The translations under genes and the position numbers were made by a program. Shown here one piece after another: positions 53,954 to 56,946 of a DNA stretch of 64,000 bases. This DNA comes from Escherichia coli (GTDB lineage Bacteria; Pseudomonadota; Gammaproteobacteria; Enterobacterales; Enterobacteriaceae). The stretch lies in assembly GCF_029227855.1 (NCBI RefSeq), contig NZ_CP074356.1; one strand, written 5' to 3'. Positions within the stretch are counted from its first letter, which is position 1. Each line of letters starts with the position of its first letter. A model generated the notes under the pieces. It was not told the DNA's origin. It searched no databases and was given only the letters and a program-made list of their open reading frames with translations.

Positions 53954-54784
53954 TTACGCGGAGCGAGACGCTGTCGCCCCTGCGCGTGGTGGCAGAGCAA
54001 ATGCCACCAGCGCCGGGATGAGATAAATAAACCAGACGGCGACTTCGCTGACACTTGGCGCTTCCTGATAGCCAAAAATCCCTTCCATCAGCGTGCCAAA
54101 CAGCGAGTGAGTTGAGAGCACCGCACTCATATCGAAGGCGATTTCCTGAAAGTGGTTCCACAATCCGGCTTCATGAAATGCGCGAATGGCACCAGCTGCC
54201 AGCCCAGCGGCGACGAAGAGAATAAACAGGCTGGTCCATTTAAAAAATGCACCAAGATTGAGGCGAATACCGCCCCAGTAGAGCAGGAAGCCGAGCACCA
54301 CGGCTGTAGCAAGACCGAGCATTGCACCCAGCGGCGGCCAGATCCCGACATCTTGTTGAAATGCCGCCAGCAGGAAAAAGACCGACTCCAGCCCTTCCCT
54401 TGCAACGGCAAAAAAGACCATCATCACCAGCGCCCAGCCATGATGATTTCCACGCTGCAATGCGCTATCGACTGCCTGCTCCAGTTGTACTTTGACGTTG
54501 CGCGACACTTTGCGCATCCAGAAAACCATCCAGGTAAGGATCACCACGGCGATCACCGCCACGATACCTTCAAACAGTTCCTGTTCTTTTTGCGGAAATT
54601 CGCCGGTGGTTTCGTTAATGAAGATACCCAAGCCCAGGCACAACGCAGCGGCAAGCAACACGCCAATCCACATCACACCAATCCATCGGCCTCGCTGGGT
54701 ACGCTTAAGATAGCTGGCAATCAAACTGACAATCAGCGCGGCTTCAAGTCCTTCGCGCAACATAATGAGAAATGGAACAAACAT
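53954..54784 (-). CDS. efeU: Ferrous iron permease EfeU (FTR1 family), apparently intact
   Basis: ORF 53954..54793; start placed at MFVPFLIMLREGLEAALIVSLIASYL (276 aa), uninterrupted, with REGLE and RExxE motifs. Confidence 0.9.
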   Translation of the reverse strand: MFVPFLIMLREGLEAALIVSLIASYLKRTQRGRWIGVMWIGVLLAAALCLGLGIFINETTGEFPQKEQELFEGIVAVIAVVILTWMVFWMRKVSRNVKVQLEQAVDSALQRGNHHGWALVMMVFFAVAREGLESVFFLLAAFQQDVGIWPPLGAMLGLATAVVLGFLLYWGGIRLNLGAFFKWTSLFILFVAAGLAAGAIRAFHEAGLWNHFQEIAFDMSAVLSTHSLFGTLMEGIFGYQEAPSVSEVAVWFIYLIPALVAFALPPRAGATASRSA

Positions 54785-54841
54785 GCCACCCACCCTTAAA
54801 CGTTTTTCTGAGTCAATCTATGCAAAGAAAAGTAAATCGCA

Positions 54842-54860: not shown

Positions 54861-54993
54861 CGGCAAAGAAAAATACAAGCGGAATGTTTATAAAATGATG
54901 TTGGAATGTAAACAAAGAGAGGTAATGCCAGGGGATATAAACGATTATTCCAGGTACAAAGATGGGATTGTTTACAACGAGCCATGTGTTCTT

Positions 54994-55027
54994 GCCAGAT
55001 GCCGCGTAAACGCCTTATCCAGCCGAC
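54994..55027. repeat. REP-like element in the putP-efeU spacer
   Basis: GCCAGATGCCGCGTAAACGCCTTATCCAGCCGAC matches the REP family seen elsewhere in the window. Confidence 0.6.
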
Positions 55028-55437
55028 AAAACTGTCCAGACTCAATGCATCAGAGCTTCCATGTAAAACTGATAAGCGGGTGTATCAAGCAATTTCGTCC
55101 ATCCGCGATTATCAAATCTAACTTTTTGCCCGGAACATAATAACAGCTCGGGTGTTGGTGGCGTCAAAGTCGCTGAAGCGTTCCCCGAAGGCCGGGGCAG
55201 CCCACATGGATGTGGGCTGAGGGCGCGTCTTACAGGACATTACCTCGCGCCCGACCCGGTAGCCGAAGGGGATAAGCTGAAGGTACCGCGCAGCGGCGAT
55301 TTTGTTCGCCAGAGCCCGGGGTGCAGGGGGTGGCGGCGATTGGCCGCCCCCTGCACCATTCAATTTATATGGCGAGGCACATTAAGGGAGCGCAACCCGC
55401 TGCTGAAGCCAAACAAAACCGCCGCAGGCTAAGTCCC

Positions 55438-56946
<1,509 letters not shown>

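Follow-up and report, generated by a model that had tools for sequence, protein, structure and literature searches.

A GC-rich repeat downstream of putP in Escherichia coli is a copy of TRIP1 with a conserved single-strand fold and a TwoAYGGAY-like 5′ domain

A 64,000 nucleotide (nt) stretch of Escherichia coli DNA (contig NZ_CP074356.1 of assembly GCF_029227855.1; hereafter the window) raised the question of what occupies the spacer between putP (55438–56946, minus strand) and efeU (53954–54793, minus strand). Just past the putP stop codon this 644 bp spacer holds a GC-rich, hairpin-dense element, which an earlier reading made from the letters alone (the sequence-only reading) had placed at 55150–55437 and had taken for a possible structured RNA, repeat-family member, or gene remnant. 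The element is the putP-efeU copy (TRIP1b locus) of TRIP1, a dispersed, non-coding, GC-rich E. coli repeat that has already been described. Comparison of its copies revealed one conserved single-strand fold on the window plus strand, shown by covariation, and the 5′ domain of this fold has the architecture of the Rfam motif TwoAYGGAY. As an already catalogued repeat the element is ordinary as a discovery; its value lies in new links, in that TRIP1, a 25-year-old E. coli repeat, and the orphan TwoAYGGAY motif seem to be objects of one kind.

GC content was 0.62–0.70 across 55150–55400 and 0.32–0.49 in the remainder of the putP-efeU spacer. Two palindromes were found in the GC-rich part: CAGCCCACAT/ATGTGGGCTG at 55198–55219 (10+10 nt, perfect) and GGTGCAGGGGGTGGC/GCCGCCCCCTGCACC at 55320–55357 (15+15 nt, 93%). 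Both had been reported by the sequence-only reading, with positions one base too far downstream. The 22-mer palindrome had no match in 100 shuffles of the window and is therefore not expected by chance. Against dinucleotide shuffles, the predicted fold of the plus strand reached −132.4 kcal/mol (z −4.8), 13 kcal/mol better than that of the minus, putP-sense strand (−119.1 kcal/mol, z −3.7). An nhmmer search with a 283-position profile of the repeat unit matched profile positions 3–279 to 55142–55405 on the plus strand (239.6 bits, E 7.5e-72), and the same search found only this one TRIP1 copy in the window. Thus the region named earlier is indeed GC-rich and dense in hairpins, with its bounds redrawn: its final ~32 nt are locus-specific spacer. 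The unit is antisense to both genes; its end lies 33 nt from the stop codon of putP and its start 349 nt from the start codon of efeU.

TRIP1 was first described by Rudd (1999, Res Microbiol; as given in PMC10888264). In the account of Li et al. (2024, Genes 15:236; PMC10888264), TRIP1a lies after aqpZ, TRIP1c after yohI (dusC), and TRIP1d and TRIP1e at alx-sstT and copA-ybaP, while TRIP1b, which is in reverse orientation, lies tens of bp past the stop codon of putP and ~355 bp ahead of ycdN/efeU; each type is fixed at one locus. The same account gives 62–65% GC, very stable predicted “double-Y” RNA folds, copy number and orientation that vary, and a function stated as unknown (PMC10888264). 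TRIP1 copies are substrates for homologous recombination that inverts large, up to megabase, chromosome segments, and 156 chromosomal rearrangements between copies were recorded (Li 2024, PMC10888264). The distances and orientation of the window unit fit TRIP1b, and its GC content and fold stability are of the kind described. Over ~215–260 nt the window unit was 91–96% identical to the aqpZ and dusC copies, and it was collinear with the K-12 putP copy, indels aside. The identification as TRIP1 rests on the copies at aqpZ-lysO, dusC(yohI)-yohP, and putP-efeU and on the 125-bp deletion of the K-12 putP copy, all of which match the descriptions of TRIP1a, b, and c, including the sibling copies at aqpZ-ybjE(lysO) and yohI(dusC)-yohG(mdtQ) (PMC10888264). 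The K-12 TRIP1b copy is a 146-bp form with a 125-bp internal deletion, whereas the window copy is near full-length with an 11-nt deletion of its own. Relatives in other genera, covariation, likeness to Rfam TwoAYGGAY, and CsrA-type loops are new with respect to that literature, as are head-to-head pairs and a copy at asmA-yegH, none of which appears in PMC10888264.

The proposal that the element might belong to a repeat family thus held, although TRIP1 had not been recognized by name. A megablast search with 55140–55440 found the TRIP1 family in 5425 of 5426 complete E. coli genomes, at a median of three places per genome (range 1–10, top counts 8–10). The other copies lay after aqpZ (aqpZ-lysO; 915.0–915.3 kb in K-12) and after dusC (dusC-yohP; 2,229.1–2,229.4 kb in K-12), places without RefSeq annotation. 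Like REP/BIME, ERIC (IRU), and BoxC (TMECO) sequences, TRIP1 is a GC-rich or palindromic extragenic repeat at gene 3′ ends whose presence varies between strains and which can promote rearrangements. Unlike them it is much longer, has far fewer copies, folds into many helices rather than a single palindrome, and bears no sequence relation to them. The BoxC consensus CCCTCNCCC N3–6 GGGNGAGGG (N3 GGGNGAGGG) had no match in the window (consensus from PMC4666352). The sole REP-like match was a single palindrome at 54988–55024 (minus strand) in the same spacer, ~120 nt from the unit and outside the element (partial naRNA4/REP match, 27 bits, below threshold). The RSA repeat of the Blattner 1997 list, which is said to be 150/151 bp long with six copies in K-12, is an unlikely identity, since K-12 has three places of the TRIP1 family. 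A literature search for the hairpin sequence itself found it in no paper.

Species-representative genomes were scanned once with a conserved 34-nt pattern, which returned 61 loci. They came from Escherichia spp., Pseudescherichia vulneris, Pluralibacter gergoviae, Kluyvera, Pseudocitrobacter, Enterobacter sp. ENT03, Klebsiella pneumoniae, and Raoultella. No Salmonella locus in these genomes matched the pattern. Seven loci were found in Kluyvera cryocrescens, seven in Enterobacter sp. ENT03, and five in Klebsiella pneumoniae; one mislabelled K. pneumoniae chromosome had units at 12 places. TRIP1 is one part of a broader family of ~280-nt units in the Enterobacteriaceae. Head-to-head pairs of units, ~630–700 nt long as estimated from alignment profiles, with an AT-rich spacer of ~100 nt, were present in Kluyvera, ENT03, P. 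vulneris, and Pseudocitrobacter. In Kluyvera intermedia such a pair begins 34 nt past putP, and neighbor-protein clustering suggests further units beside putP in P. vulneris and strain RIT691 and beside efeU/efeO in K. cryocrescens. No partner-unit remnant was detected in the window spacer at E ≤ 10.

From the alignment of 56 distinct units, RNAalifold derived a consensus structure with 13 helices and 64 pairs. Compensatory changes were seen at 25 of the 64 consensus pairs, compared with 5–11 pairs in slid controls. Paired cells of the alignment amounted to 97.9%, against 37–44% when the 3′ partners were slid by 1–3 columns, and 303 cells were changed on both sides, against 5–50 in the slid controls. 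None of 500 shuffles reached the observed value on four of five measures and 13 of 500 did so on the fifth (further standard pair types); the units share ancestry, so that the counts are not independent and shuffle controls overstate significance. The slid-partner control is the fairer test, as it is unaffected by shared descent. The suggestion of a structured RNA was borne out in part, as a conserved single-strand fold, the RNA itself being predicted.

The strand of the fold was indicated by two asymmetries. G.U exceeded A.C by 53 to 14, and GGA occurred 6.6 times per unit, compared with 2.0 times for TCC; together these excesses place the selected fold on the window plus strand, antisense to putP. 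The 13 kcal/mol advantage of that strand in predicted stability points the same way. The fold comprises a long closing helix, two adjacent GGA-loop hairpins, a small hairpin, a GC-rich hairpin, and a terminal helix around a variable hairpin. Many of its unpaired nucleotides are invariant among units. A wholesale compensatory switch in the terminal helix (helix 13) separates two subtypes: A-type units have GCGCUCC/GGAGCGC there, and B-type units have CGUUCAC/GUGAACG. In hairpin 1, the pair at columns 72–81 (55204 with 55213) was A-U in 29 units and G-C in 27.

The ~36-nt hairpin inside the terminal helix was hypervariable between the copies of a single genome: its stems differ wholesale and its loop is loosely GTTC/TTCC. 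Identity between copies over this hairpin (alignment columns 240–275; e.g., L030–L036) was 53% in Enterobacter sp. ENT03, 64% in K. cryocrescens, and 72–81% elsewhere, and the rest of the unit was 93–98% identical between one genome's copies. The idea that the variable hairpin might act as a guide, copied from the flanking DNA or complementary to it, was rejected, as the longest common substring averaged 6.6 against 6.5 in controls. Helix 4 with its flanks (55178–55186 and 55268–55279; GCGUUCCCC...GGGGAUAAGCUG) seems to resemble, perhaps by chance, the two halves of the E. coli type I-E CRISPR repeat GAGUUCCCCGCGCCAGCGGGGAUAAACCG. The two GGA hairpins stand where the loop of helix 4 would be, and GGGAUAAG is nearly invariant in the 56 units.

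The TwoAYGGAY RNA motif (Rfam RF01731) was reportedly introduced by Weinberg et al. in 2010. As in that motif, an external stem in TRIP1 closes two adjacent hairpins, whose loops in the family at large carry AYGGAY, and both are found in gamma-proteobacteria. Helices 1–6 carry compensatory changes, and all of their pairs are kept in the window copy, in which loop 1 reads AUGGAU and loop 2 is a degenerate CAGGAC. In the divergent partner units of Pseudocitrobacter head-to-head pairs, the two-hairpin core scored 49.2 bits, above the RF01731 gathering score of 43; the ENT03 partner reached 33 bits. These TwoAYGGAY-like partners are homologous to the unit profile (positions 25–281, E 1e-12). The intact K-12 aqpZ sibling aligned globally, over its 5′ domain, to the TwoAYGGAY model (positions 1–168) on the plus strand with E 0.004 and 30.6 of the 43 bits needed. 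Additionally, TRIP1 differs from TwoAYGGAY in occurring as dispersed repeats and in an extra 3′ module of ~110 nt, made up of the GC-rich hairpin and the terminal helix with its variable hairpin. TwoAYGGAY itself was independently predicted to bind CsrA (PMC4333381) and is still described as unexplored.

Exactly two CANGGANG sites, 28–29 nt apart, were present in 54 of the 56 units, compared with 0.14 expected from shuffles. The two sites read ACAUGGAUGU and ACAGGGAUGU in the family, and the window copy has one intact CANGGANG site and one degenerate site, 27 nt apart. [quoted passage not shown] TRIP1 units share with CsrB, CsrC, and RsmZ the GGA in hairpin loops, the context ACANGGAUGU, and a spacing within the reach of a CsrA dimer. 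They differ in having two sites per unit, in very stable stems, in showing no dedicated promoter or terminator, and in being multicopy, in either orientation, with the sites set inside a large conserved scaffold. CsrB carries many GGA hairpin elements, about 20 repeats in all.

If the plus strand is transcribed, the two ACANGGAUGU hairpins, 28–29 nt apart, would offer a CsrA dimer two binding sites in one module, and the units would serve as dispersed protein-binding RNA modules, not as cis-regulators of one neighboring gene. Overall, the explanation that accounts best for the TRIP1 unit, and a fairly probable one, is a folded plus-strand RNA module with a predicted CsrA-type dual site. The form under selection is likewise somewhat more probably folded plus-strand RNA than single-stranded DNA. 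Binding of a CsrA dimer by this RNA through its two loops is a tentative proposal, drawn from the motif and its spacing, and is possible but doubtful. A broader and more speculative proposal, held to be rather unlikely as a whole, is that TRIP1 may be the enterobacterial branch of TwoAYGGAY: a spreading, structure-constrained RNA module that would combine a dual high-affinity site for CsrA or another protein with a copy-specific hypervariable hairpin, and whose dispersed copies would provide strain-variable post-transcriptional control or CsrA titration instead of being inert repeats. The fold and the CsrA-consensus loops make the function of TRIP1 testable.

Several observations weigh against the RNA-module explanation, beyond the shared ancestry of the units. 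Upstream of units at four loci there was no sigma-70-like promoter, and downstream of units no general terminator; sigma-54-like and other leader motifs, seen by eye, were inconsistent across copies. Units occur in either orientation relative to their neighbors, which makes a cis-acting RNA unlikely and leaves transcription uncertain. With nine GC-rich pairs, the GGA stems greatly exceed in stability the short ones favored in CsrA SELEX (PMC7652899). The many invariant unpaired nucleotides point to a role beyond that of a plain CsrA decoy. The window copy had no TwoAYGGAY match at E ≤ 10 and so fell short of the 43-bit gathering score. An Rfam scan of the window region, which had been proposed as a check on the element, returned at E ≤ 10 only chance-level matches far below threshold (Pxr, Chloroflexi-1, BjrC80, FinP, and others).

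A different account of the same fold takes the unit for a non-autonomous mobile DNA element, like a miniature inverted-repeat transposable element or mobilized by an HUH-type enzyme, in which the fold would be a single-stranded DNA transposition intermediate and the loops recognition sites for a transposase. The two accounts are not mutually exclusive, and a G.T bias is compatible with single-stranded DNA as well. Mobility is suggested by the varying copy number (1–10 places in E. coli and 12 in the one K. pneumoniae chromosome), by genus-specific signatures in the copies, by presence/absence alleles at putP-efeU, and by strains that differ in unit subtype, orientation, and spacers at aqpZ-lysO and dusC-yohP. 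At least two genera, Escherichia and Kluyvera, carry units in the putP 3′ region. Units sit at the 3′ ends of genes only, between convergent or tandem genes and never between divergent ones, and head-to-head pairs end in inverted-repeat termini. Other results speak against mobility. Among 437 flanking ORFs there was no recurrent transposase-like or reverse transcriptase neighbor, the clusters being repeat translations or orthologous housekeeping genes; inspection by eye, with no systematic search for target-site duplications, found neither such duplications nor a conserved terminal inverted repeat on single units. A candidate outer helix joining the 5′ leader to the 3′ tail was rejected, as the pairing was no better than in swapped controls (duplex energy −17.0 with own tails and −16.3 with swapped tails, p 0.49). 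The family was absent from 50,697 phage records and had one match in 2.9 million viral contigs; all plasmid matches were typed as non-mobilizable, and several of these records were chromosome-sized. Each TRIP1 type is, moreover, fixed to one locus (PMC10888264). A mobile DNA element is the main rival account and is regarded as unlikely.

The position of the unit, starting ~33 nt past the putP stop codon, would also suit a cis-acting element of the putP 3′ end, either an unusual terminator or an mRNA-stabilizing structure of the REP kind. Its allele lacks the putP terminator hairpin of ST95-type strains (a terminator read by eye in the alignment), and the putP-sense strand is very stable too, at −119 kcal/mol. 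Yet the minus strand has no hairpin followed by a U-tract, which upholds the earlier judgment that the element is too long and structured for a simple putP terminator; the only terminator-like site in the element, at 55320–55357, is on the plus strand. The conserved fold and the G.U bias lie on the opposite strand, and the TRIP1 unit also follows unrelated genes, in both orientations. Because of this strand and this variety of contexts a cis role for putP is unlikely, and the element as a putP terminator or stabilizer is improbable. A coding origin, whether a gene remnant or a small Gly/Pro/Ala-rich protein, is scarcely credible. Overlapping ORFs of 81, 45, and 43 amino acids do exist, and some RefSeq genomes annotate a “hypothetical protein” at the putP-efeU unit, but none of the three ORFs has a Pfam or NCBIfam match, indels of 1 nt and 11 nt separate the copies, and substitutions pair up across stems instead of falling at third codon positions. 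The gene remnant entertained by the sequence-only reading therefore found no support, in keeping with the same reading's own view that the segment lacks convincing coding potential.

The folded RNA module remains the preferred explanation, and the features of the window copy are set out in Table 1 against the family consensus. In total, 53 of the 64 consensus pairs survive in this copy. Through the 11-nt deletion the terminal helix has lost its 5′ half, so that its conserved 3′ end is an orphan, and ATTCAATTTA now follows the GC-rich hairpin, which accounts for the terminator-like score on the plus strand only. In hairpin 2, a 1-nt deletion and a C-A mismatch leave the window copy with a single CANGGANG site. 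Since half of the terminal helix was lost through an 11-nt slippage deletion and the second GGA loop is degenerate, the window copy is probably a decaying one.

Table 1. Features of the TRIP1 unit and adjoining spacer, in positions of the window.
Feature	Position	Strand	Evidence
TRIP1 unit, near full-length	55142..55405	+	Profile match; 91–96% identity to aqpZ/dusC copies
5′ domain, TwoAYGGAY-like; 55159–55179 pairs with 55276–55311	55159..55311	+	RNAalifold helices 1–3; 11/17 pairs compensatory
Hairpin 1, 9-bp stem, loop UGGA, reads ACAUGGAUGU; GGA at 55208–55210	55198..55219	+	CANGGANG in 56/56 units
Hairpin 2, GGGCGCG...CGCGCCC, degenerate loop ACAGGACAU; GGA at 55235–55237	55221..55252	+	CAGGGAYG or similar in 54/56 units
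Small hairpin CCGC-GCA-GCGG, then invariant GCGAUUUU	55286..55296	+	Helix 10; 100% paired; G-C to A-U in 7 units
GC-rich hairpin, then ATTCAATTTA in window copy	55320..55357	+	Helices 11–12; 6/10 pairs compensatory
Site of 11-nt deletion (CTGCGCGCTCC, between CCCTGC direct repeats)	55351..55352	+	Alignment with K-12, 2017.10.01CC, and other-locus copies
Variable segment, equivalent of hypervariable hairpin	55358..55385	+	Columns 240–275; 53–81% identity vs 93–98% for scaffold
Terminal helix 3′ half and conserved end GGGAGCGCAAC, orphaned (55386–55397)	55386..55397	+	Helix 13; compensatory switch between types
Locus-specific spacer, unit to putP stop codon	55406..55437	.	Absent from aqpZ/dusC copies; kept in K-12 at putP-efeU

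The putP-efeU locus had at least four alleles. The near full-length unit was present in ~956 of 5426 genomes, 351 of which were ≥99% identical to the window. The K-12-type allele, found in ~2600 genomes, is a unit with the 125-bp internal deletion, which lies between short CTGC-type direct repeats. In ~1860 genomes there was no match to the spacer beyond putP, a class that includes the ST95-type and O157:H7 states. The ST95-type allele (ST95-32, L074:2786-3004) has a 219-bp spacer with no TRIP1 unit and with a canonical putP terminator hairpin and U-tract, read by eye; this short spacer is likely the “empty” state of the locus. Universal conservation at this locus, together with a match to a described repeat family and no discrete transcript, had been named by the sequence-only reading as what would speak against its proposals; the family match was found, and the locus proved variable.

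Several local effects of the window copy are likely. It would stand in place of the canonical putP terminator of strains without a unit, it would separate putP from the efeU promoter by a very stable structure, and it would offer a recombination target to other TRIP1 copies (after Li 2024, PMC10888264).

The other two E. coli loci also differed between strains. At aqpZ-lysO, K-12 and EC361 carry units of different subtype, in opposite orientation and with different spacers, and the same three differences separate K-12/BL21 (~3300 genomes) from the LY180 type (~2100 genomes) at dusC-yohP. As spacers and unit subtypes differ between the alleles, simple inversion in situ was ruled out at both loci, and the changes are replacements. 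Allele switching at putP-efeU, aqpZ-lysO, and dusC-yohP bears on differences in efeUOB, lysO, and yohP transcription between E. coli lineages.

A B-type unit (terminal helix CGTTCAC/GTGAACG) was found at ≥80% coverage in 1458 of the 5426 E. coli genomes, and also at L026, L052, and L062. In strain 17MR471 (L077:1501-1851), the sole copy with its locus determined, this unit sits between asmA and yegH, a site that is not among the five TRIP1 loci of Li et al. 2024 (PMC10888264). In O157:H7 strain ECP17-1298 (L073:1510-2853), the putP-efeU spacer is 2.67 kb long and holds an unrelated 447-amino acid hypothetical ORF, without a Pfam family, and no TRIP1 unit. The efeU gene, an intact ORF of 279 amino acids in the window, is annotated as a pseudogene in K-12 MG1655.

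Matches to the 34-nt pattern also came from metagenome-assembled genomes labelled Desulfacinum (L013), “Proteobacteria bacterium” (L022), and Sporobacter termitidis (L050). In the alignment these looked nearly identical to E. coli or Klebsiella copies; two of the three contigs were short (2.8–2.9 kb) and that of Desulfacinum was 110 kb long. The matches may reflect enterobacterial contamination of the bins.

The spacer of Kluyvera head-to-head pairs contained two to four tandem copies of a ~37-nt unit (ATTGGCGTTKGCTTTTAGCTGAAAACTTGCAGCGA; L046:1-240, L047:2630-2760, L048:990-1120, and L060). Short tandem duplications of the terminal motif were seen at unit ends. In Klebsiella a REP-type sequence, judged by eye, seems to come next after the units. 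One K. pneumoniae locus (L008:1991-2271 and 2428-2708), which lies downstream of a mechanosensitive channel gene, had two units in direct tandem with 157 nt between them, a local duplication of the repeat.

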